DNA from: Octopus vulgaris
Lineage: Eukaryota
Assembly: GCA_951406725.2 (NCBI GenBank)
Contig: OX597829.1
Location: forward strand, 24,676,001 to 24,740,000
Reading direction: 5' to 3'
DNA length: 64,000 nucleotides
This document shows positions 1,187 to 61,645 of the stretch, piece by piece. Positions within the stretch are counted from its first letter, which is position 1. Every line of letters starts with the position of its first letter. The notes below the pieces were generated by a model. The model saw nothing but the letters and a program-made list of their open reading frames with translations, was not told the origin of the DNA and searched no databases. The position numbers and the translations under genes were made by a program.

Positions 1187-1904
1187 CTAGCAGAAAAAAA
1201 CAAAGACAACTTTATATTGCAGTTATTAATTAATAGGTTGGTTATTTAATGAGAAAAACTGGTAAAAATCAATTTCTTTCACGCATACATAGACAATTTT
1301 ACAAAGAGGAAAAACTCTAGATGAAATCTGAAATTTCAACATACATTTTATTATGCTCAATGGAGCATGAAAGACCAAGATATATCTGTTGAAATTTGGT
1401 CTTGGAGTAGGGAGAGATGAAAACTATCTTTAATTACTATTAAATGTCTAATTATATTCATTTGTTCAATATCTGTCTTCCCATGCTGGTTCAGATTTAG
1501 ACAGAGAATTATTTCAGGTAGGATTTTGTAACCAAATGCTGAACCTATTTCCAACTTTTGCTTGTTTTTCAAGTAAAGAATTCTTTCTTTATCCTTGAGG
1601 TCTTCAAATTTGCAGCATAACTGGTTATAACATAAATAAAGAATGTTACTTACATCAAAACTGCAAGTGACAAGTGAGGAATCTAAGAACATTAACACAC
1701 ATCATCATGTACACACACACACACACACTTGGCAGGCTTCCTGCAGTCTTCATCTAACAAGTCCCCATGCAAGGCATTAATTTGGTCAACCTGGGAAGTA
1801 TTGTATAAGATACTTACCATGGTGTTGCAAGGTGAAACTGAACTAAAAGTCACGGTTATGAACCAAACTTCTTGACCAGATAGGAAAAAATAAACACCAA
1901 CAGT

Positions 1905-2322
1905 CATAGCAGTGTGGTAAGAAGCTAGCTTCCCAACCACATGGCTCTGGGTTCAGTCCAACTGCATGTCACCTTGTCACCTTCTACTATAACCTACTAT
2001 ATAAGTCTAACTGCATATCACCTTCTACTATAACCTCAGGCCAACCAAAACCTTGTGAGTGGATTTAGTACATGGAAACTGAAAGCAGCGTATTGTATGC
2101 ATATATCTATGTGTATGTCTTTGTTTGCCACCGACCACATCACTACTTGACAACCAGTGTTGATGTGTTTACACCCCTATAACTTAGCAGTTCAGCAAAA
2201 GTGACTGATAAAGTAAGTACTAGGCTTAAAAATAAGTCCTGGGGTTGATTTATTCAACTAAAACCCTTCAAGGCGGTGCTCCAACATGACCATAATCAAA
2301 TGACTGAAACAAGTAAAAGAAA
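1905..2322 (+). mobile_element. SINE family A
   Basis: Aligns by eye with 61273-61645. Confidence 0.8.
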
Positions 2323-2397
2323 GTACCTAGGTTAGGAGGTGGTGGCAAGGAAACACTGTATACATAAACATACATGTGTGTGTATACACACACACGG

Positions 2398-3230
2398 GCA
2401 GTGAAAAACTGCCCGTGTCATTTCTCTGTTCAAAAAGGGTGACAACAAGTTGCCTGTCAACTATCATCTAGTCAGTCTTACCAACTGCATTGCAAACTGA
2501 AGGAATCTTGTGTCAGAGAAACACTCTGGAATTCTCACAACCTTATCTGGCCCTCACAATTTGGATTTATCCCTAAATCCAACAGCTGTGATCAACTTAT
2601 TGAGTTTCTTGAAGACATTACCTGGATTACTGATGGTAGCTCATAGGTCGAAGTTGTTTACCTTGACTTTGCTAAAGGTTTTAATTCTGTGCCACACAAA
2701 AGACTTATGGCAAAACTCTCTGCAATAGGTGTGAAAGATGATCTTTTTAACTGGTTGGAGTTCTTCATTCTCAGCTGAAAAGAGGTAGTCACAGTTCTAG
2801 GACAGCATTCTTCACCCTGTGAGATGTTATCTGGTGTATCACAGGGATCCATTCTTGGTCCCCTTTTGTTTGTTGCATACATTAATGATATAGATGCCAA
2901 CTTAAAGAATACCACAATGCTGAAATATGCAGATGACAAAGTGGGCATGCCTACAAAGTCAGAAAACAGCACAGCTCCCATGACTTTCAGAAACATTTTT
3001 TCACACTCAGAGGTACTGAAGCATGGAACAAACTACCTGCATCCTTTGAAACTTCCATGATTCCTGAAATTCGCCAACACTACGCCTGATATTCTCCCCT
3101 CAATACGCATGCACACGTGCATTTCATGACACATACACTATTCACTTTCCTGACATTTGCACATAATTCTATGTACTATACATGCAACTTTGATTTGAGC
3201 ACTGCACACAATAATTTCATTATTATTATT
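2398..3230 (+). mobile_element. CR1/L2-clade LINE reverse-transcriptase fragment, decayed
   Basis: Frameshifted motifs YLDFAK..SVPH, SGVSQGSILGPLLF..YIND and KYADD; (ATT)n-like tail near 3220. Confidence 0.85.
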
Positions 3231-4339
3231 TTTTTTTTATATACATCTATGCATATGTCTGAGTAAGGAGGGATTGCACTAAAACCTATTGGTATCAAAT
3301 GCATTATCTATCTATCCTCTTATGCTGGCAACCATCACTCACTCTCCCTCAGATATCTCTCCATTAGCTAAACTTTACAACCATAACCACCACCACCACT
3401 ACCACCACCCAATTTCATACTGCTAACTACCACTCCCCCCACCTCTGGTCACTCATTACTGACATCCATCACTTCCTCTCTCTCTCTCTCTCACCAATGA
3501 CCATTTTTACATCTATCCATCACAATCTCTTTCCCCTTCATGCCACTACTAATTCTCTTGTTGCATCATTTCTTCACTATTTCTCCATTTCCCCTTCTTC
3601 CACACATCATCCACCATGTTTTCCTTTTCCTCCCTCTCACCTAGGTTCATCTTTATTCACACTCTTACTTCTATCCATTCAATTGGTTACACTACTGCAA
3701 GTGAATGGAGACAGCAAACAGCAAAATGGACTCCACTACAAGACAATCTCACAAATGCTGAAGTTATGATAAATAGCATACAGTGCACTCTGTAAATTGC
3801 TTGGTGCTAGGAAAGCCAGCTGTAGAAACCACGCCAAAATTAAAACAAATGGGTGAAGCATGATTCCCCAACACATCTAAGAGAGGGAGAAGTCTGAAAT
3901 AACCAATTCAAACTCAGTTATTGCCATCCAATTCAACCCAGCATGGAAAGCAAACATGAAATGATGATGAAGCACATGTATCACACAGGTATCAACACTA
4001 TATCATTACCGTCTTCATCGTTTTTTGGTGTCTGCTTTCTATGCTGGCATGGGGTAGATGGTTTGACTGAAAGTGGTAAGCTGGAGAGTTATGCCAAGTT
4101 CCAGTTTGATTTAGGATGGTTCCAAGAGCTGGATGTCCATCCTAATGCCAACCACTCAAAGAGTGTCATGGATGCTTTTATGTGCCACAACTATGATTTC
4201 ACTTGGCTTGATGAGTCTTCTCAAGTACAGCATATCACCAAAGGTCTCAGTCGCTTGTCATTGTCATTTAAAGATTATGCTTCAGTACCTCGTCCCATGT
4301 CTTCCTGGGTCTACCTCTTTCACAAGTTCCCTTCACAGT

Positions 4340-4800
4340 TCAAGATTAGAGATTGGCACTTCTTTACACAGCTGTCCTCATCCATATGTATCACAAGACC
4401 ATACTAGCACACCACATCTGATGCCTTTTATGCCCAACTTTTCTCTCAAGATGCTTACACTCTGTTGTATACGCACACTGCATTGCACATCCAGCAAAAC
4501 ATACTGGTTTCATTTCTACAAGCCTACACATGTCCTTGGCAGTCATAGCCCATGTTTCACTGCTGTGTAACATGGCTCTTTGCACACAGCCATCATACAA
4601 TCTGCCCTTCACTTTGTGAGAGAGGCTCTTAGTTATCAACAGAGGTAGGAGCCCTCTGGACTTTGCCCAGCATATTCTTATTCTAGCAGCTACACTCTCG
4701 GAGCATCCACCTCCGCTCCTGACTTGGCCAGCTAGATAATAGAAGCTGTCAATTACTTCTAGCTTTCCTCCTAACAGAGGAGGGGGCATGATCAACAGTG
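4340..4800 (-). mobile_element. RTE-clade LINE 3' ORF fragment
   Basis: ORF 4391..4795 contains LEVIDSFYYL..GGCSESVAARIR..KGRLYDGCV..MLHSSETW, typical of the RTE C-terminal region. Confidence 0.8.
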
Positions 4801-5359
4801 AATATCAGTTCCAGGTGTGTGATTGCATGTGTGTATGTAGGAAATATGAGTGGGTAAGGAAGGAGGACGTGATAAATGGGGTGTACACAAAGAAAGGATG
4901 GAGAGCAGCATTGTAATAAACCTGTATAAATGAGTAATAGAGATGGTGTGAAGTGTGGAAAAGAGCTCAATAGCAAAGGCAGAGATCCGGGGTATGTAGG
5001 AGTAGATAGGTGACTGGATGGTTTTCTCTCTATCTCTATCTCTCATATATATATATATATTGAGAAAGAGAGAAACAAAGGAGTGTCAATGGCCAATATG
5101 AGACAGTGTCCAATAGTGGTATATGATATTAAGAAGAGTAATGGAGGGATGGTTATTTAGAAGACAGGTTGTGAGGCAGCTTGAATGCAGGGATATAGAC
5201 AAAATGATATGCTTTTAAGACCTCTCTTTTGCTGGGGTGGGCAGGTCTCCTCAAACACAATGAATCACAGTCATCTCACTCCTTTGCTATCTTTTCTGTA
5301 AGCTCAACATCCTGTAATTGGTCTTCACTACTCCTACTCACACCTTCCCAGGACTCCCT

Positions 5360-6560
5360 TTTCCACAGGTCACATTCACATTTAGTGATCAGCACTTTGT
5401 ACTACTGCACTCATCCATACTTGTCACAGTCATCTCCCCTGGACATCACATCTGATGCCTGTTATGCCCAGTTTTACTCTTAATACATTTGCCCTTTCCC
5501 ATATAAAGCACACTGACATAGCACATCCAATGGAGCAGTTATTTTCTTGTCTTTACATATCCTCTGCATTCACAGCTCACATTTCACAACCATGTAGCAT
5601 TGCTGTTTGTACACAAGCACCTTACAATCTATCATTCATTCTGAGAGAAAGAGAGCGGCTTTTGTTACCAACGGAGGTAATAGCTCTGAACTTTCCCCCA
5701 TTCTGTTCTTATTTTAGCAACTACTAGCAGTATCGCCCGGCGTTGCTCGGGTTTGTAAGGGAAATAACTATAAAGCATTTTTAGAGAGTTATAGCCAAAA
5801 AATGGGGAAAAAATGATGGTAAATTTTTTTTTTAGTTAAAAAGGTCGAGTTGCGTCCCCTAGACAGTCTGTGGTTTGTGTTTCTGATTCTCGACCCCATG
5901 TCGAATTTATCAATTTTTTTCAGAACTGGGGGAACTTTTCAAAATTTTCGCTGCGTTAGTTTTGAATTATGACATTGGGCTATGTACGTGTCAAGTTTCA
6001 TCAGAATCGGTTGAAAGCCGTGGTCAGGGTGAGGGTACAACCTAACAGACACACACAGACAAACTGCCGTTTATATATAGAGAGATGCTTTTAGAACATC
6101 CTACTCCACTGCAAATTAGGTCACTTAGGTAATAAATTATCTACTATCTCTAGCTAACCTCCTGGGCATCTGAGAATTTCTATTTCTCACAGGTTCTTAG
6201 TATCTATTGCTCTTGTGCATCTGTTACAAAAAAGTCCACTTTCTCCAAATTTTCTTGCAATTACACTGCAACTCTTATATAACTGTAATTTGCATCAAGT
6301 ACAGAATATAGAATTTCTACCTACTCCTTCTCTACATATAGAGTAGGGTCATTTTCCTAATGGAGGAAGCATTCAGTTTGTTTTCCTATTTACTATGACT
6401 TTGGTCTTTGTCAAGTTAACTTTAAGGCCCTTTCATTCCAAGTTTTGCTTCCACATCTGAAAGTTTTCTAATTCTATTACAGAATCAACTATTAGAACAA
6501 GGTCATCAGTATAAGAAGATTCTCATGGGCACTCACTCTTTAACTCCCCTGTTGTGTTTC
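5360..6560 (-). mobile_element. RTE LINE fragment interrupted by a Helitron
   Basis: Homologous to 4340-4800 and extends to the CPWE..YTDDLVL RT motif near 6500-6530. Confidence 0.7.
5724..6085 (-). mobile_element. Non-autonomous Helitron nested in an RTE LINE fragment
   Basis: Minus strand: 5' TC(TCTCTATATATAAA), 3' hairpin CCCGAGCAACGCCGGG then CTAG; inserted between A and T with no TSD. CpG-rich, so probably young. Confidence 0.8.
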
Positions 6561-8677
6561 CCCATTGCCTTTTTGACTTTAATGTTCCACAACTATGTCA
6601 CCCTCAGTCTGGCTGAAACTTTTCACCAACTACAGATTTGATCTGTAGCCATTAGTAAGTTGTCTTGCAGGACCTTCTAGTTGTCTTGTATGCTGTATGT
6701 CTATCTCCTCTTCCTTTTCAATTAATACTTAACTAGTACTTCTCTAAATTTCTGACTGTTCACTGAACTATTAAGCTTCCATTTTCCAAAGTGGTTTGTA
6801 TCTCTGTCCTTCTATCCCTAAGTCTGAAGTTACTAACCACTAGCCTATGTTGAGTTGTACATGCTTGACCAAGGAAAGACTGCATTTACAAGTATTTGCC
6901 TATTCCTGTTTGTGGTGAGAATATAGTCAATCTGGCTTGTGTTCCACCAAATTCATAGGTGATTACGTGCTTCTGGAATTTAGTAGAAGAAAACTGTGCA
7001 GGAACCCATCACATTACCATGCTCATATGACATGCAAACATACACATTAGTGCCTCCCCTCTCTGAGCTTATATTTGCAAGAATATCTGTGCATATGCGA
7101 GGAGGGGATGAGCAAGAAGTGTACTAGAATCACATATAGGCTGACTGCAGATTATAGGAGTTGTTAGTTCTCACAGTACTGTTAAAGAAAAAAAAATTCA
7201 ATACTCAGAATATTTCTTTAACCTACATGACCTAATCAGCAGTGGAGAAGGGTAATCTGAAAGTGATCAGAATAAGGACAACGTGAAAAAAGTGGATGTG
7301 CTAATACATCAGCTGACAACAACGATTTCTCTCTTCAAGGAAGTGGCAGATTGTATATTGTTTGTGTATGAAGTGTGTTGCTTACATGGTAGTGAGACAT
7401 GGGTATTGAATGAAGATATGAGAAAGTAGGATAGATGTGAAGCAAGCACAATCTTCTGGATATGTAATGTCAGTATGCATGAGCAACATAGTGAAGAAGA
7501 AATCAGTTGTAGTGTACAAGAGAGACAACTGGTTTGGTAAGGACATGTAATGCTCATGGAAGATGACAGAAGAGGAAAGAAGAGGAAGAAGAAGACATGA
7601 GCAGAGATGGTAAAGATTGATCTGGAGATGTCAAAAAGAGATGACAAAGAAACACCTATAGTGAGATGCTGTGTTAGAGAGGATACAGTGAGCTTGGGAA
7701 AGCGGATATAAAAATGATACTTATTTTATAATAATCATCTTTATTTAACAGCCACTTTTCTATGCTTGCATGGGTCAGATGGAAGTTGTTGAGACAGATT
7801 TTTCTATAGCCAGATTCCCTTCCTGCAGCCAACCTTAACTTGTTTCCAAACAAGGTAATATTTTCTCATAGCTAGGCATTTTTCTCAGAAGCTTAGAAAC
7901 AGCCTTGCTTCTATGACAATGATGCTCATTCACAACCATCACACACAACATTATGATTTTGCTACAAGGTCACAAGTTCTGTCTCACTGCATGGCATCTT
8001 GTATAGTTTCCTGCTATAGCTTCGGTGTTGTTGTGAGTGATATTAGAAGACGCGCGTGTGTGTGGTGGGGTGTATACAATGGGCTTATTTCGGTTTCCAT
8101 CTACAAAATCCACTCTCATGGCTTTGACTGACCTGAAGCTATAAGTAGAAGAAACATGCCTAACACACTACACAGTAGAACTGAAACTGAAACCATATGG
8201 TTTGAAGGCATACTTAGGCATGAAACTAAGTAGTAATATTTTAGTTCATTTAAGTGAAACATTTAATCTCTGAGAGTGCATAATGACTCAACATGTAGTC
8301 AATGCTATGACTTTAAATGAATTAAATATGAAGAATAGACTTCAAATATGCCCCAGAATGACATTACAATCGTAACTGACCAAATTACAAAATTTAAAGT
8401 AATTAAGATTACATAAATGAACAACCTGCCAATGGTTATATATTACTATATACCTGTCAACACAGTATATAGTAATAGGTACTACATTATCCAGCCCATA
8501 CCAGTACAGAAGACATGTAAAATTGTGATGAAAGAAAACAGAAAAAAGTTGTAACAGTGTCCATAGGAATTAAGCACCACATCATCTGCTGTAAACCATA
8601 TAACTGCTCACCACTACAACAAAGTGACATCACGATGTTATCTGTCCAAGTTAGAAAGCTTTACCTAAGATGCTAAG

Positions 8678-8715
<38 letters not shown>

Positions 8716-8716
8716 C

Positions 8717-9092
8717 TCTTTACTTGTTTCAGTCATGTGACTGGTGGCATGCTGGAGCACTGCCTTTAGTTGAGCTAATTGACCCCAGGACTTATGCTTT
8801 GTAAGCCTAGTACTTATTCTATTGGTCTCTTTTGCTGACCCACTAAGTTATGGGGACATAAACACACCAGCATCGGTTGTCAAGCAATGGTGGTGGACAA
8901 ACACAGACACACAAACACACACATATATACGATGGGCTTCTTTCAGCTTCCATCTATCAAATCCACTCATAAGGCTTTGGTTGGTCCGAGCCTATAGTAG
9001 AAGACATTTTCCCAAGGTGCCATGCAGTAGGACTGAACCCAGAACCATGTGATTGGTAAGCAAGCTACTTTCCACACAGCCACTCCTGTGCC
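8717..9092 (-). mobile_element. SINE family A
   Basis: Reverse complement of 61273-61645. Confidence 0.85.
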
Positions 9093-9168
9093 TACAATAT
9101 ATATATATTAGTCGAATAAAGTTAAAATATAGCCTGGTTTTTACATCTTTTATTATGGTATTTTAACA

Positions 9169-9206
9169 AAATTAGTGCTTTCATACATAGTGTACTCATC
9201 AGATTT
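9169..9206 (-). ncRNA. Minimal type-I hammerhead motif (mirror copy, sense to the Rad6 pre-mRNA)
   Basis: Minus strand reads aaat-CTGATGA-gtaca cta tgtat-GAAA-gcac-TA-attt; stem III has one CpG-type change (gcgc to gcac). Confidence 0.6.
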
Positions 9207-9308
9207 CAAATGTATTTAACTGACAGTTGAGTTCCTGACAACTTTAGTACCTCTTAGAGCACTCCAGCCAGCTGGTTGGAGCATTCTAAGAGGTACTAAA
9301 CACATTTT

Positions 9309-9346
9309 AAATCTGACGAGTACATTATGTATGAAAGCGCTAATTT
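9309..9346 (+). ncRNA. Minimal type-I hammerhead ribozyme motif
   Basis: aaat-CTGACGA-gtaca tta tgtat-GAAA-gcgc-TA-attt: stem I aaat/attt, intact core, 5-bp stem II, palindromic stem III AGCGCT, CUA cleavage triplet. Confidence 0.7.
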
Positions 9347-10018
9347 TGTTTAAACACCATATTAAAAAACGTGAAAACCAGACTACGTCTTAACTTTATT
9401 CAACTAATGTACAGATTCACACAAATTCGAAACTATATATATATATATATATCATAAATACAGTGTACATTTAAACACATAAGAGGTGGCCATAATAGGA
9501 CATCTAACCCACTAGAAGGAGTAGTTAAAATCCAAACCACTACAGGCTAGGCCACTGGTGGTAAGAAATTTTTAAATAATTTTTCACTACCCTGAAATTT
9601 ATATATATATATATACATTACACACACATAATCATCATCATTTATATAAAATGTACACAAACAGAATTGCCCAGATGAACAGCTGTATTTAGTTAGTTAT
9701 AAATATTTGGCGTTAATATACTTATATTTTTATATTTTTGTAAATTTATGTTTTTATAATTTTATTTTAAATTAATCTGAGTAACTGATTTCCAGAGAAG
9801 CAATGTTACTAAGGCACTAATGCTCCTAGAAAGGCATGAATGCCATAGTATTTCATGTGCACAAGCTTAATATCATTAACAATGTTTGTAGTGTCAAGTC
9901 TGAAAATAAAATTTAATACAATAGACACTTAAAACTACTTTAAAACATTCTAAATTCGAACCAGTTCTTTTACTAAGTGTAACACATTCTATTTTACTGC
10001 ACCTACACACCACATTAA

Positions 10019-10233
10019 CCTTTTAACATTTAAATTGGCTATATCTGGCTCAAATATTCTACGTGTTTTATGTACAAACCAGGCAAGTCTGACCTCACAC
10101 ACATACTCTAGAACGTTGTCCTAAAAATATATCATTGACATCTAAAAGCCATGAGATAAAATGCATGGCTAACTCAAAACAATGTGAATATAAAAAAACA
10201 TTACGTTGACATATTAATTTCAATGCTAGAGGG
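10019..10233. mobile_element. piggyBac-type MITE copy
   Basis: TTAA|CCTTTTAACATT ... AATGCTAGAGGG|TTAA. Confidence 0.7.
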
Positions 10234-11475
10234 TTAAGCAGATAAGACTAAGTTTAGCAAGCTGTCATATACTGAATAGGTGTGAAATTTAACATCTGCC
10301 CTTACATCTATCAATCTTTCACATTTTATTACACCAAACTGCAGCTGAAGGATATTTATTTCATATTTTCATGAAAAATAATGTTCTCACGAAGCACTTC
10401 CACTGCACATTTCCGGTTTATTATGACAACTAACAATACATATCAAAGTGAAATTTAAGTTTTACTGTTTCATTCAAATATGCTTTTCCCCCCCGCTTTT
10501 TTTTTTTTTTTTTTTAAAGAATACTTCCTTACCCTTCAATGACATTTCTATGGTTGAAAAGTAAAGCACAAAAACGAAAAAAAAAAAAAAAAGATCTATA
10601 TGAAATATGAGACCTTTTACATTAAAAATATTTAAACAAAAACTGAAATACTTGAAAGAAGCTCTAAGTCAATTAGCTTCTGGTTACAGTTACTGAAAAC
10701 AAAAGATCTGATATTTTGCAAATTTAGAATAAAACCATAAGGTTATTTAAATATTTATATTTGGTTTTTGCTAGATTAATCATTGTCTGGTTATTTTATT
10801 ATTAACCTTGTCATGTTGTATTCCTGCTGTAGCAAGAACAGGTTAAACATTATCTCTGTCATTATCTCTTGGTAAAATGGTAACGGAAAACACACATAGG
10901 GGGGAAAAAAAAGATGCAGCTAATTTTGTTCATTAGTTTGTCTGCAATCGTTACTCTTGAGCTGTATCTTAAATCTTTTACTTGTTTTAGTCATTAGGCA
11001 GTGGCCACGCTGGGGCACTGCCTTGAAGAACTTTTAGTCAAATGAATCAGCCCCAGTACTTATTCTTTAAAAGCCTGGTACTTATTTTATCAACCTCTTT
11101 TGTCAATCCACAAAGTTACAGGGAAATAAGAATTCGGTAGGTGGAAAATGCATGGAAAATCATGGTGTGTATGTTTCACATTTGTGCATCTCCAAATATT
11201 GTAAGCTAGAAGTGGTGACATCATTTTCCCTCTTAACAAATCATGAACTGGCTTTGTACTTTCAAAGAACTGTGAAATAAGAGATCCCTTACTTGAAATC
11301 TGGTAAGGGTTAGTGAAAAGAAGAGTCTCCAGCTATAAAACAATGCCTCAATAATATATTCATCTAAGCCATGCTATCCTGGTGAAATAGATATAAAAAA
11401 TACAAATGGAAAATTCCTAAACTCTTTAAAATGCCAACATTTTGGGGCTAGATTTTGCATAGTATAAGTATGACA

Positions 11476-11905
11476 TGGTAGTATGGTAAAAAGTTTGCTT
11501 CTCAACTACATGGTTTTAGATTCAGCCCCACTACATGATACCTTGGGCCATAGTCTTCTACTATAGTCCAGGGCTTACTAAAGTCTTGGGTGAATTTGAT
11601 AGACAGAAACTAGAAGAAGCCTGCCATATGTGCGTGCGTATGTGTGTGTATTTGCATGCACATGTTATTGTCTCCTTTCCTTAGCACGGCATGATATTTG
11701 TAAAGTGTTACTGTCATGCAAGCAGTGTCCTTTGTTTCTAATCTTCCGAGAACATGTCTGGTCACCGGGAAGTATTATCTTACTTGGAAACAGGTGAGAG
11801 TTGCTGACAAGAAGGGCATCCAGTCATAGAAAATCTGCCTCAGCAAATTTCGTCTGACACATGCAAGCATGGAAAAGTGGATGATAAGGAAAGATGACAA
11901 TGACA
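11476..11905 (+). mobile_element. SINE family C: family-A head with an RTE-type 3' tail (also ~7740-8220 minus and ~20910-21690 plus)
   Basis: Same tRNA head as family A, then a different body ending GAAGGGCATCCAG...CATGCAAGCATGGAAAAGTGG. Confidence 0.65.
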
Positions 11906-12130
11906 TGTAACTCACACAGACTGAGTTTTTAAGAATATGCCTCAAAAGGTAATTGTATTTTTAGCTGTTCTGTATGTACACAGGACTTTGAGCTCAAGTT
12001 GTATAATATTGTTTATCTGACTTGGTAAGAAATGAGCATGTTACATAGTGAACAAAAATACCAAAATGAAAATATACACTAAAAGAATGTAACATTTAAA
12101 TTATTAACGCCATAATCTGAAGATACATAC

Positions 12131-12246
12131 TATTTGGATGAAACATCTTTGATATAAATCTGACAGTAGGTGGTTTGTTGGGATATTCCTCTGTGAATTT
12201 TATTGTTAATTTGAAAGTCCCATCTTCAAATGGCGTATCATTTGGC
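12131..12246 (-). CDS. UBE2A: Rad6/UBE2A coding exon 3 (116 nt; [40 protein letters not shown])
   Basis: Lies inside ORF 12096..12281; CAG acceptor and GTATGT donor; carries the UBC-domain YPNKPP and HPN motifs. Confidence 0.97.
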
Positions 12247-23380: not shown

Positions 23381-23407
23381 TTTCACTTCAGACCTGGAGT
23401 GAAACAG

Positions 23408-23766
23408 TGTTCCGGGTTCAGTCCCACTGCGTGGCACCTTGGGCAAGTGTCTACTACTATAGCCTCGGGCCGACCAAAGCCTTGTGAGTGGATTTGGTAG
23501 ACAGAAACTGAAAGAAGCCCGTCGTATATATGTATATGTATATATTTGTGTGTGTGTTTGTGTACCTGTGTTTGTCCCCACTAGCATTGCTTGACAACCG
23601 ATGCTGGTGTGTTTATGTCCCCGTTACTTAGCGGTTCGGCAAAAGAGACCGATAGAATAAGTACTGGGCTTACAAAAACAGAATAAGTCCCGGGGTCGAG
23701 TTGCTCGACTAAAGGCGGTGCTCCAGCATGGCCGCAGTCAAATGACTGAAACAAGTAAAAAGAAAA
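23408..23766 (+). mobile_element. SINE family A, 5'-truncated, CpG-rich (young)
   Basis: Starts at GTTCCGGGTTCAGTCCC and retains CpGs. Confidence 0.85.
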
Positions 23767-26929: not shown

Positions 26930-27076
26930 TCCAACCCAGGACTTATTCTTTGTAAGCCTAGTACTTATTCTATCGGTCTCTATTGCTGAACCGCTATGTT
27001 ACGGGGATGTAAACACACCAGCATCAGTTGTCAAGCGATGTTGGGGGGACAAACACAGACACACAAACATACACAC

Positions 27077-27137
<61 letters not shown>

Positions 27138-27313
27138 TATACATACATATATATGATGGGCTTCTTTCTGTTTCCATCTACCAAATCCACTCACAAGGCT
27201 TTGGTCGGCCCAAGGCCATAGAAGACATTTGCCCGAGGTGCCACGCAGTGGGACTGAACCCGGAACCATGTGGCTCATAAGCAAGCTACTTACCACACAG
27301 CCACTCCTACGCC
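26930..27313 (-). mobile_element. SINE family A
   Basis: Reverse-complement copy with an expanded (TA)n. Confidence 0.85.
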
Positions 27314-28007
27314 TTTGTTTATAATTTCAGCAAAAGAATTGTTTGTTGATCAATACTGATAAAATGAAATATATTCTAGTTTTCTCAGAAAAATTCCAAG
27401 AAAGAGTAAAAAGAAAGAAAAAAGTTTTTTTTTTATTTTTATCAAATTTGCTTTCACAATAAATATAAAATCAAACAATAATAAAAAAAAAAAGTGTTTG
27501 TCTTTAAAATATTTCCCTAATCATCAATGTTGATTGTTGTTTAGCACCAAGTCAGTCAAGATCAAGCAGGCTAATGATCAAAAAGTATCCCAGCCATGAC
27601 CATTTCATATATTTGTTTTTAAACATAGTATATCAAGGATTACATGAGGCCACGTGCCCTTACTTTTAAGATGGAAGGGAGGGCTATAATTTAAAGGAGA
27701 TTTGACTGCTATTTCTAGCAGCCTGAATGGCTACAAAGATGTTATTTCATTGGCTGAAATTATTACAGTAGTCTCAATTTTATCTCTGTCAAACATTTTT
27801 CTGTTTTCTTCAATATAGTGATGGTGGTGGTGGTGGTGGTGGTGGTGGTTACATGACTTGAGGTCTGGTAAGTGAATAAATGAGGCTGGTGCAGTTAACA
27901 TGGGTGCACGAAAGACAATTGTTGAAGAGACAGTTCCAGCGGTGGTTCTTAAAATGAAAGAGCCAAATGTGATTAATGCTTGGCACAGGACTGTGTATGT
28001 GAGAGAG

Positions 28008-28347: not shown

Positions 28348-28672
28348 AGGGTTTTAGTTGAACAAATTGACCCCAGGACTTATCTTTTTAAGCATAGTAC
28401 ATATTCTATTGATCTCTTTTGCTGAACTGCTAAGTTATGGGGATGTAAACACACCAACACTAGTTGTTGAGTAGAGGTGGGGGGACAAACACAGACACAA
28501 AGACACACACACAGATATATGACAGACTTCTTTCAGTTTCAGTCTACCAAATCCACTCACAAGGCTTTGGTCAGCTTGAGGCTAAGACACTTGCCCAAGG
28601 TGCCATGCAATGGGACTGAACCAAGAACCATGTGGTTGGGAAATAAGCTTCTTACCACACAGCCACACCTGT
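28348..28672 (-). mobile_element. SINE family A
   Basis: Reverse-complement copy. Confidence 0.75.
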
Positions 28673-29329
28673 ACCTATAAAGCTTAATAATTACAAAGTT
28701 ATTTTCATGAGTTTACTAAATTCTTCATTGTGTACAAAATTTTGTTCAAAAGTAATGTATTTCAAAAGAAAAATAGAAATAAATAGTTAAGATGGTTAAC
28801 GCCTTATTAGCAAGATTTTCCTATTGTGACAATTTTTAATACTTTGTGTATCCCATTTGCAGGTTAAAGGCATGCCTGGAAACAACAAAAAATTTAACCA
28901 GAAAGCTAACTGAAAGGAATCCATTCTATGATATGCCATTAATAAAATGAGTTTGAATAAGTTGATGGTTTACTAGGATGCCAGTATTCAAACCATTCCA
29001 TGTCCCCAACACAACAACAACCCTCTTAACAAAATGGAATGATAGTTGATAGGGAACTAAAAGCTAAGTAACAAGTTTGGAAAAAAACCTAGAAAAATGC
29101 TAAGAGGGAGTATTTATCAAATGGCTAGAAAAGCAACATGATGGGTATACTTGGTTAAGGAAACAAAAGGGGAGAAATTTTCACATGTTATAAACACAAG
29201 AATCAGAAGTGTGAGATGCTCAAAATATCTGGTGAGGATTTGATAACTACCTGGATTGGCAAAGCAGTTTCATAATAAACTGCTACAAAAGGCAAAAGAG
29301 ATGCACCAGAGAGAGAAGAAGCTACAGAG

Positions 29330-39619: not shown

Positions 39620-40175
39620 ATACATTTATATTATTATTTACATTGGATGGATATGTGTCCTCATTTTGTTTGTTGTTAGCTGCAGGGACTTCAGCTAACA
39701 TTTTGGCTGATATTTTCTCCAGCCTTCATCAGGTATCCTAGTGAAATTTTGAACACAACGCTGAGTTCTCATTCCTAAGGTATTTTTTGATGTTATTATT
39801 TATTCAAGACACTGCCTGGAATTGAACTCAGAATCTTGGGGTTAGTAGCTTACACTCTTAACCACTACACTATATGCCCATGGGGTTAGTAACCTGTGCT
39901 CTTAACCACTACACTATGTGTCCATGGCAAACAACATAGTGGTTAAGAGTGTAAGCTACTAACCCCAAGATTCTGAGTTCAATTCCAGGCAGTGCCTTGA
40001 ATAAATAATAATAATGACATCAAAAAATACCTCAGGAATGAGAACCCAAGGTTGGGTTCAAAATTCCACCAGGATACCTGGTGAAGGCTGGAGAGTAAAT
40101 CAGCCAAAACATTGTGGTAACAACAAACAAGATGAGGACACATATCTGTCCAATGTAAATAATATAAATAATGTA
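39620..40175. mobile_element. Foldback element B: two divergent units, each a tRNA-like head plus a degenerate hammerhead
   Basis: About 39620-39867 is the reverse complement of about 39937-40175. Head: TAGTGGTTAAG (A box) ... GAGTTCAATTCC (B box). Downstream: CTG(A/G)TGA-a-GGCTG...CAGCC-aaaa(c/t). The spacer holds a ~44-nt duplication of the head. Confidence 0.75.
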
Positions 40176-57094: not shown

Positions 57095-57138
57095 CTCATG
57101 AAATCCCTCATTAATCGTCTCCTCGCCGGCGTAGCCAT
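57095..57138 (-). CDS. UBE2A: Rad6/UBE2A-like E2 ubiquitin-conjugating enzyme, coding exon 1 (44 nt; MATPARRRLMRDFM-R)
   Basis: Reverse complement reads ATGGCTACGCCGGCGAGGAGACGATTAATGAGGGATTTCATGAG|GTAAAA, matching the Rad6 N-terminus MSTPARRRLMRDFKR. GT donor at 57094-57093; frame joins exon 2. Confidence 0.95.
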
Positions 57139-59601: not shown

Positions 59602-61272
59602 CACATACACAACTTCTGCTCGAGAAATTCTTAACGTAAATATTGTTACATAAGTCGCCTTTTCGTTTCGATTTCGATAATACTACACGATATTTAAGTT
59701 TGAAGATGCTAGTTATGTCCCTTCGCTTTCACTTCTGACCGGGTTCAAACTCGTCTTCCTACGCTCCCACATATTTCTGTCTTCTGTATAATCATTATTA
59801 TTTAATGCGGTGAGTTAGCAGAACCTTCAGCCTCGAGGACAAAAATGCTTTTTGCAGCAATTTTTCCTGCTCTTTACATTACGAGTTCAAATTCTGCTGA
59901 GATCGGCTTCACCTTTCATCCTCTTGTGACCCCCAAGGATCGATAGGATAAATAAATCGACTAGCCCTCTCCCCCAAAATTAGAGACTTTACGCATTTTA
60001 AATTTTTTACTGGCTAATGAGAAACACATAAGAGATGTCAACCGTTCACTCTTCCAACATTTTGTAAGGTGTCAGGGAGCAGGGAAGAAATGGTAATCTT
60101 GTTCAAGCCGCACGTTTTGAAAACAGACTTCCTCCCACCACCGTTATAGAACGAAAGCAACGTAATATATTAAATAAAATTCGGCATACCTATACAAGTA
60201 CCCCCCTCCCCACGGCTTTGTTTCTCAATAACTTCCAAAAAAATTGATATTTTTTTAACAAATATGCTTCAAATGTTGCAGATTATTATTATATCGGAAT
60301 TTTTTGTGAAAAGATTTTTCTGAGGATGGGGAAGGGAGTTTCTGAAAATTTTAAAAGTTGTCTTTGTTTCCTCATAACTTTCAGAAGAATGGGTATTTGT
60401 TTTTGAAATTTTCTACAAATACCTTTCAGATGGTGTTGATTACGATTATATAGGAATTTAATACGAAAAATATTGGTGGACTCGCCCACATACATGACAC
60501 TCATAACAATTTTTTCCGAAATTTCAAGTTTCATATGATGTGTGTCTGTATGTTTGTGAGCTATGTAACAGTAAACAAAAATGACCACTGATACCAACAT
60601 AATGGACAAAAGAACCAGTTTTTATGTATTGATTTCAGATTTTGGTACTAAGCCAGCAATTTCGTGAGAGGGATAAGTCGATTACATTGATCCTAGTCCT
60701 TAACTGGTACTCATTTTATCAACCCAGAAAAGATGAAAGAAGACAAAGTTTACCCCAGCAGCATTTGAACGTAGAACGTAAAAATCAAAAGAAATATTGC
60801 TAGGTGCTTTGTCCAACATGGTAACAATTCTGCCAGCTCACCATCTTAACCACTCTTTATATATTAACAATTTCAAGTAATTGTGCATCTTGTAATGGTA
60901 AATAAAAACCAGTATTTCTTCTGTCGTTTATTCCATGGTCATCATTTACCCATTACATTGTAGAAACCTGACGTACATTTGTTACACCCATCAGTTACAT
61001 ATATCCATGACTGAATAAAGTGATATGGTACTAAATTCAAATATTTTGAAGTAGCCTTAATTTTGTTTTGTTTTCAAATTTATGTAGTATCATTAATATA
61101 CTATAGAGTATTACCTATCATATAACAGGTAACTTTGAAAGTATACCTCTGAGTAATATTAGAAAATATGGCATACATACCACAAATTATAATTTACTTT
61201 TATCAAATTTCTTGGCACATACAGAATGATGAAATGAACACCTATTTTCAATACTTTAAAATGAAATTAAGT

Positions 61273-61645
61273 AAGCGTAGGAGTGGCTGTGTGGTAAGTA
61301 GCTTGCTTACCAACCACATGGTTCCAGGTTCAGTCCCACTGCGTAGTACCTTGGGCAAGTGTCTTCTACTATAGCCTCGGGCCAAGCAAAGCCTTGTGAG
61401 TGGATTTGGTACATGGAAACTGAAAGAAGCCCGTTATATATATGTATGTGTTTGTCCACCCAACATCGTTTGACAACCGATGCTGGTGTGTTTACGTCCC
61501 CGTAACTTAGCGGTTCAGCAAAAGAGACCAATATAATAAGTACTAGGCTTGCAAAGAATAAGTCCTAGGGTCGATTTGCTTGACGAAAGGTAGAGCTCCA
61601 GCATGGCCACAGTCAAATGACTGAAACAAGTAAAAGAGAGTAAAG
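61273..61645 (+). mobile_element. Full-length tRNA-derived SINE, family A (octopus OK/OR-type)
   Basis: TGGCTGTGTGGTAAG A box, GGTTCAGTCCC B box, internal microsatellite and 3' CAAATGACTGAAACAAGTAAAAGA; many copies in the window. Confidence 0.85.

Follow-up and report, generated by a model that had tools for sequence, protein, structure and literature searches.

The DNA analysed here, a window of 64 kb from Octopus vulgaris, carries on its minus strand the exons of a Rad6/UBE2A gene, which lie near 57.1, 24.9, 12.2 and 1.1 kb; Pfam UQ_con matches two of the three exon pieces tested. Exon 1 (57095-57138, minus strand) translates as ...RLMRDFMR, with an M at the second-last position where the usual Rad6 sequence has a K. 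The host intron of interest spans about 10.9 kb (1187..12133, minus strand) and harbors an inverted repeat, the donor being some 2.7 kb and the acceptor some 7.9 kb away. SINE-like repeat copies, which presumably resemble repeats of octopus genomes, are found within the gene in both orientations (8719-9095, 23404-23676, 26930-27314, 28383-28676, and 61271-61634), and four other inverted pairs, made up of SINE-like and other repeats, share the intron with the element. The plus strand at 2779-3060 matches Pfam RVT_1 with E 8.8e-7, narrowly missing the curated cut-off; this piece of a reverse transcriptase seems to be left over from a LINE that has no relation to the hairpin element.

Folding bears out the foldback that an earlier note on this DNA had placed at 9107-9408, with an energy of -150.5 kcal/mol, a z score of -20.4, and none of 100 shuffled sequences as stable, and the RNA of the minus strand is more stable still (-166.2 kcal/mol). 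The inverted repeat arms, delimited as 9099-9218 and 9297-9416, are 84% complementary. The left arm (9107..9274, minus strand) is sense to the Rad6 pre-mRNA and the right arm, as defined by the arm alignment, covers 9269..9408 on the plus strand. They meet head to head with zero spacer in a 6-bp palindrome, CAGCTG, at 9269..9274. Of the 141 columns in the arm alignment, 20 (14%) show a difference, and the right arm has in addition lost 28 nucleotides, the equivalent of left-arm positions 9219-9246, in an internal deletion flanked by TAAA microhomology. Only the right arm is followed by what is likely a tail, which is A/C-rich, 25 nucleotides long, and located on the plus strand at 9409..9433. 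Since this tail lies outside the hairpin, the span of 9107..9408 describes the foldback well, and the element itself likely ends at 9433. The left end of the hairpin runs straight into an (AT)n target microsatellite (9097..9108), directly behind the SINE-like repeat at 8719-9095, and the end of the tail adjoins the right (TA)n target microsatellite (9434..9452). A target-site duplication cannot be discerned within these (TA)n flanks. The copy contains no ORF, its one open stretch of 18 codons ending immediately 5' of the hammerhead on the minus strand.

Each arm harbors a minimal type I hammerhead, in which the core formed by CUGANGA, GAAA, and UH is present together with helices I and II. The plus copy (9309..9346), which is antisense to the host gene, was described correctly beforehand: stem I aaat at 9309-9312 is followed by CTGACGA (9313-9319), the helix II segment gtaca-tta-tgtat, GAAA (9333-9336), gcgc, TA (9341-9342), and attt up to 9346. 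Its stem III palindrome AGCGCU is intact and cleavage is predicted 3' of 9342. The minus copy (9169..9206) mirrors it; its C3 is position 9202, its N17 position 9173, and its predicted cut lies 3' of 9173. That this copy is sense to the Rad6 pre-mRNA, with the complementary arm being transcribed first, follows from the minus-strand exons on either side of the element. The three differences reported between the copies are all present, at the variable core position N7 (9198/9317), in loop II (9190/9325), and at a stem III CpG (9176/9339). The claim that an intact core exists on each strand is thus accurate as regards the 12 fixed core positions and does not extend to stem III of the sense copy, whose palindrome is broken to AGCACU. 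A descriptor of the minimal hammerhead found three matches in the window (9313, 9202, and 60320) and none in any of 200 dinucleotide shuffles; the match at 60320 on the plus strand is solitary, unrelated, and free of any foldback. A search with Rfam gave no match at gathering score across the 64 kb, and a hammerhead was not among the eight weak matches around the element.

The broken palindrome is reflected in folding. The stem III self-duplex is worth -8.3 kcal/mol in the plus copy versus -2.3 kcal/mol in the sense copy, and when pieces of 56 nucleotides were folded as dimers, the plus copy paired via its palindrome whereas the minus copy gave no clean double hammerhead. No second copy of the family was found in the 64-kb window, and the descriptor scan detected no same-sense partner for the sense hammerhead. 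The motif is unlikely to cut by itself. Two tests asked of the arms themselves gave non-significant results: there is no difference in the 12 core columns versus 20 in the 129 columns elsewhere (P 0.13, Fisher 0.15), and 11 of 17 transitions are of the kind that yields G-U pairing in the sense RNA (p 0.17). The presence of two intact cores fits neutral decay. CpG decay was set aside as the source of all three differences between the hammerheads: among the changes listed, N7 of the left arm has no majority one, and the C of the plus copy therefore looks derived.

The origin of the arms becomes apparent from contigs of other sequencing runs. Contigs from four of 24 runs, carrying two organism labels, were aligned to the element at 80% likeness. 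These runs share at most 0.23 of the words with the window (about 80% of one of them, X4, having been read), and they likely represent relatives, not the window's own genome; among 20 runs listed, none is given as RNA and none had half of the words. The aligned contigs numbered 63, 8, 697, and 730 in the four runs, the last two being X4 and X5, which identifies a high-copy family. The left arm is colinear with these contigs up to 9274, where they continue into other sequence, as seen from loose ends of 30 nucleotides in at least 4, 23, and 23 contigs of runs X1, X4, and X5, respectively. At least 27 contigs of X4 and 47 of X5 likewise have loose ends behind 9405, showing that the family continues past that end. 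As both arms start at 9274 and the family extends beyond it, the hairpin corresponds to two 5'-truncated copies arranged head to head, the left one being likely the 3' end, or pLTR, of a Penelope-like element (PLE), and the right one a second copy with the same family start position. The family's loose-end consensus at the junction contains just the 4-bp core AGCT, versus CAGCTG here. The tail resembles the 3' continuation of the family, in that an 18-nucleotide motif derived from the loose ends agrees with 9408-9425 at 15 of 18 letters (three mismatches), a motif for which the window offers six matches, four falling within microsatellites.

The same contigs provide a view of the hammerhead across the family. 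The best 40 of 57 rows of family differences leave the 12 fixed core positions untouched, while 8 of the 26 remaining hammerhead positions carry a difference. The palindromic stem III allele at 9176 accounts for 85%, 90%, and 69% of the depth in X1, X4, and X5, and for 24% in X2. Other genomic copies mutating their core as freely as their flanks, an outcome that the earlier note had named, along with a lack of cleavage, as speaking against its reading, is not what the listed rows show. The test is nevertheless non-discriminating, as active PLE lineages keep their core anyway: the family as a whole conserves the core, as expected of such lineages, which says little about this copy. Loose ends before 9208, in at least 15 contigs of X4 and 18 of X5, reveal a second subfamily with a different helix II around the same core. 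Record 13 of X2, a contig of 1702 nucleotides aligned to window positions 9170-9258, has its hammerhead region near one end and, in the element's sense, about 1.5 kb upstream of it, where the parent ORF may lie. Pattern scans were also run on other collections. Those of viral contigs returned no locus for family copies, and repeated scans of metagenome contigs gave 0 then 1 locus and those of genome contigs 0 then 4; the one metagenome and four genome contig loci resemble the element nowhere beyond the pattern and were set aside as chance matches.

A hairpin with terminal inverted repeats and TA-rich flanks could also be a MITE-like foldback family that arose from a PLE end and now spreads as a whole. 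One contig speaks in this direction: record 10 of X2 (215 nucleotides, organism A, depth 2.5) spans 9134-9340, and hence both the deletion of 28 nucleotides and the centre, aligning without gaps at 11 differences over 207 nucleotides. It is one of 32 records listed, a further 1546 records lying outside this listing. At 94.7% identity it is a possible orthologue, and may thus represent an insertion shared with another species; a sibling foldback, as the MITE-like reading would have it, is less likely. Most family contigs are of the single-arm type, and this record is the only one listed that spans the centre. At least 50 loose ends leave the element behind 9274 for different sequence. The centre of the hairpin is crossed by no record among the 24 listed for X1, X4, and X5, and none of the best 15 of 26 joints falls there. 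With a tail on one side only and no second copy in the window, spreading as a complete hairpin is very unlikely, and two truncated copies joined at a single insertion remain the preferred reading.

The architecture of the locus recalls what has been published for PLEs. Their insertions are characterized by an inverted 5'-truncated copy, a tail of 30-40 bp at one end, and a bias for microsatellites (PMC8557442), with (TA)n recorded for 26 of the 27 Hydra-clade PLEs listed in the supplement of the same study. Head-to-head inverted PLE repeats with junction palindromes have been read as the outcome of self-priming (PMC3846280), and the tail has been tied to two start sites of reverse transcription (PMC11167929). 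The present element displays an inverted, 5'-truncated, head-to-head copy with a junction palindrome, membership in a multi-copy family, and (TA)n on both sides. It shares with EN+ PLE insertions the head-to-head copies, the junction palindrome, the (TA)n, and a hammerhead near the 3' end, hence on both strands, and may share the one-end tail (PMC8557442, PMC3846280). It differs from them in keeping only about 170 nucleotides per arm, in having no ORF, and in its tail, which at 25 nucleotides is shorter than the published 30-40 bp and was recognized through a motif that is non-unique in the window. Since no ORF for a reverse transcriptase or a GIY-YIG endonuclease is linked to the family, membership among the PLEs, which is likely, would rest on structure. 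The transposon origin of the hairpin had been missed by the earlier note.

The hammerheads themselves can be compared at several levels. In the supplement of PMC8557442, those of Hydra-clade PLEs mostly lie about 80-210 nucleotides from the 3' end, and C3 of the present element, about 120 nucleotides from the end of the tail, falls within the range given there. Most of the Hydra-clade PLEs listed share with the element an additional nucleotide behind CUGANGA and in front of GAAA, and in Penelope-13_HM both strands bear a hammerhead. By contrast, Hydra-1_Obim, an octopus family of the same supplement, has a hammerhead unlike that of the element, and four window motifs found no match in the portion of the supplement searched. 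The minimal hammerheads of metazoan PLEs (PMC4209133) share with the element a helix I of 4 bp, an extra nucleotide after A9, a tiny palindromic helix III, and dual copies on opposite strands located 100-700 bp apart. However, helix II has 4-5 bp here and 7-8 bp in Schistosoma, a G-U pair replaces the conserved G10.1-C11.1 pair, and the palindrome of the sense copy is lost. For the giant squid, 235 Rfam hammerhead loci were counted (PMC6962438).

Two other known systems show a partial resemblance. Non-LTR retrozymes (10.64898/2026.07.22.740005) are, like the element, non-coding, related to PLEs, and equipped with a type I hammerhead, but they are arranged head to tail in tandem with their hammerheads on the same strand, whereas the element is inverted with one hammerhead per strand and so falls outside this group. 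The palindromic Harbinger repeat of Xenopus, an ADAR substrate (PMC5625713), is likewise a self-folding repeat of 200-300 nucleotides, for which tight self-pairing in transcripts is predicted. In contrast to it, the present element is likely derived from a retroelement and specific to its locus, and its editing by ADAR is a prediction.

What does the foldback imply for the ribozyme within it? The proposal that it sequesters the ribozyme is upheld by folding: within the full hairpin, adopting the hammerhead fold carries a penalty of about 55 kcal/mol, its ensemble share being about 1e-39, bearing in mind that nearest-neighbour folding underrates hammerhead folds and gives even isolated arms shares of only 2e-6 to 4e-4. 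When prefixes of the minus-strand RNA were folded, the core region was paired into the long hairpin in eight of eight. The second half of the proposal, that sequestration is what makes an intronic insertion tolerable, finds no such support, since monomers are reported to be inactive (PMC4209133), stem III of the sense copy is weakened, a same-sense partner is missing, and PLE insertion routinely yields such an inverted copy (PMC8557442, PMC3846280). ADAR editing of the duplex, also put forward, would be plausible, given that palindromic repeats are heavily edited (PMC5625713). The centre-spanning contig of X2, which comes from a run guessed to be RNA at a depth of 2.5 and without matched DNA, has a single T>C in 9275-9340.

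A more far-reaching version of the argument is that the inverted copy might act as a built-in antidote, which would mask its own ribozyme during transcription, so that intronic foldbacks would pass selection and solo copies in sense orientation would be purged. The idea appears in none of the 12 titles listed, out of 86, by a literature search aimed at it, and is improbable; if it were true, these genomes would be filled with intronic ADAR substrates. For the present locus, the idea of the earlier note amounts to a selection filter, in which solo copies would be lost through their cleavage of the pre-mRNA, with only self-masking foldbacks persisting in sense orientation in introns. Sequestration is indeed strongly predicted by folding, the family keeps its core among the rows listed, and tandem retrozymes are modestly depleted from the introns of Xenopus relative to intron size, although 42-44% of these copies are still intronic (10.64898/2026.07.22.740005). 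In this gene, moreover, both family-type hammerheads sit in foldbacks. The second is element B (39621..40175), an unrelated head-to-head foldback in intron 1 of Rad6 that belongs to a different hammerhead-bearing family and has a duplicated piece at its centre. Its arms are identical at 213 of 232 positions, and the cores, whose C3 lies at 39732 on the minus strand and at 40078 on the plus strand, have decayed in both, GAAA having become AAAA in each and the plus arm also reading CTGGTGA; the cores in such insertions thus do decay. Purging would moreover require that solo copies cut. The monomers of PLE hammerheads are reported inactive and the dimers cleave weakly (PMC4209133), the hammerhead was dispensable in vitro and assisted by protein, and RNA-seq of Anolis contained no read starting or ending at the cut site (PMC11167929). 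Splicing can also proceed across a broken intron by exon tethering (as cited in PMC5126111), and a mechanistic origin is available for the inverted copy. Such a filter is decidedly unlikely to account for this foldback.

An extremely unlikely alternative is that the element has been domesticated as a regulator of Rad6, editing or protein binding opening the duplex so that the hammerhead cuts the pre-mRNA. The intact core of the sense copy, the greater stability of the minus-strand fold, and the possible orthologue would all be in keeping with a function in the host. However, neither the core test nor the G-U test reached significance, the stem needed for a sense dimer is mutated with no same-sense partner at hand, and the arms have diverged at 14% of columns in addition to the deletion.

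The hairpin is thus very probably made of two 5'-truncated copies of a high-copy repeat, placed head to head in a (TA)n of the Rad6 intron, likely as one dead PLE insertion whose hammerheads are likely non-cutting passengers. The arms start at one position of the family, which continues upstream with different sequence, each arm carries the family hammerhead, and the tail is present at one end only. Published PLE biology suggests how this may have come about. A GIY-YIG endonuclease and reverse transcriptase would have inserted the element into (TA)n, with cDNA synthesis beginning at two nearby sites of the RNA, which would explain the one-sided tail. The AGCT palindrome would then have let the truncated strand either prime itself or anneal to a second cDNA, giving rise to the inverted copy. 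The divergence of the arms, including the 28-nt deletion, would represent neutral decay since insertion. During synthesis of the Rad6 pre-mRNA the sense hammerhead is predicted to be zipped into the duplex, and as it would have no good dimer partner either, the intron should remain uncut. The duplex would serve as an ordinary ADAR substrate, sequestration and editing being by-products and not the cause of the insertion's survival.

The element in itself matters little. It is a compact case of the published signature of inverted PLE insertions, and while this kind of insertion is already known, the family it comes from is likely unmatched to any described one. Where a hairpin in an animal intron bears hammerheads on both strands, the first reading should be that of a PLE footprint, as this case shows. 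The present element would find a modest use as a test case: the function of PLE ribozymes has been called unclear in the PLE literature, and comparing solo with foldback intronic copies may tell whether PLE hammerheads ever cut the host pre-mRNA in vivo.
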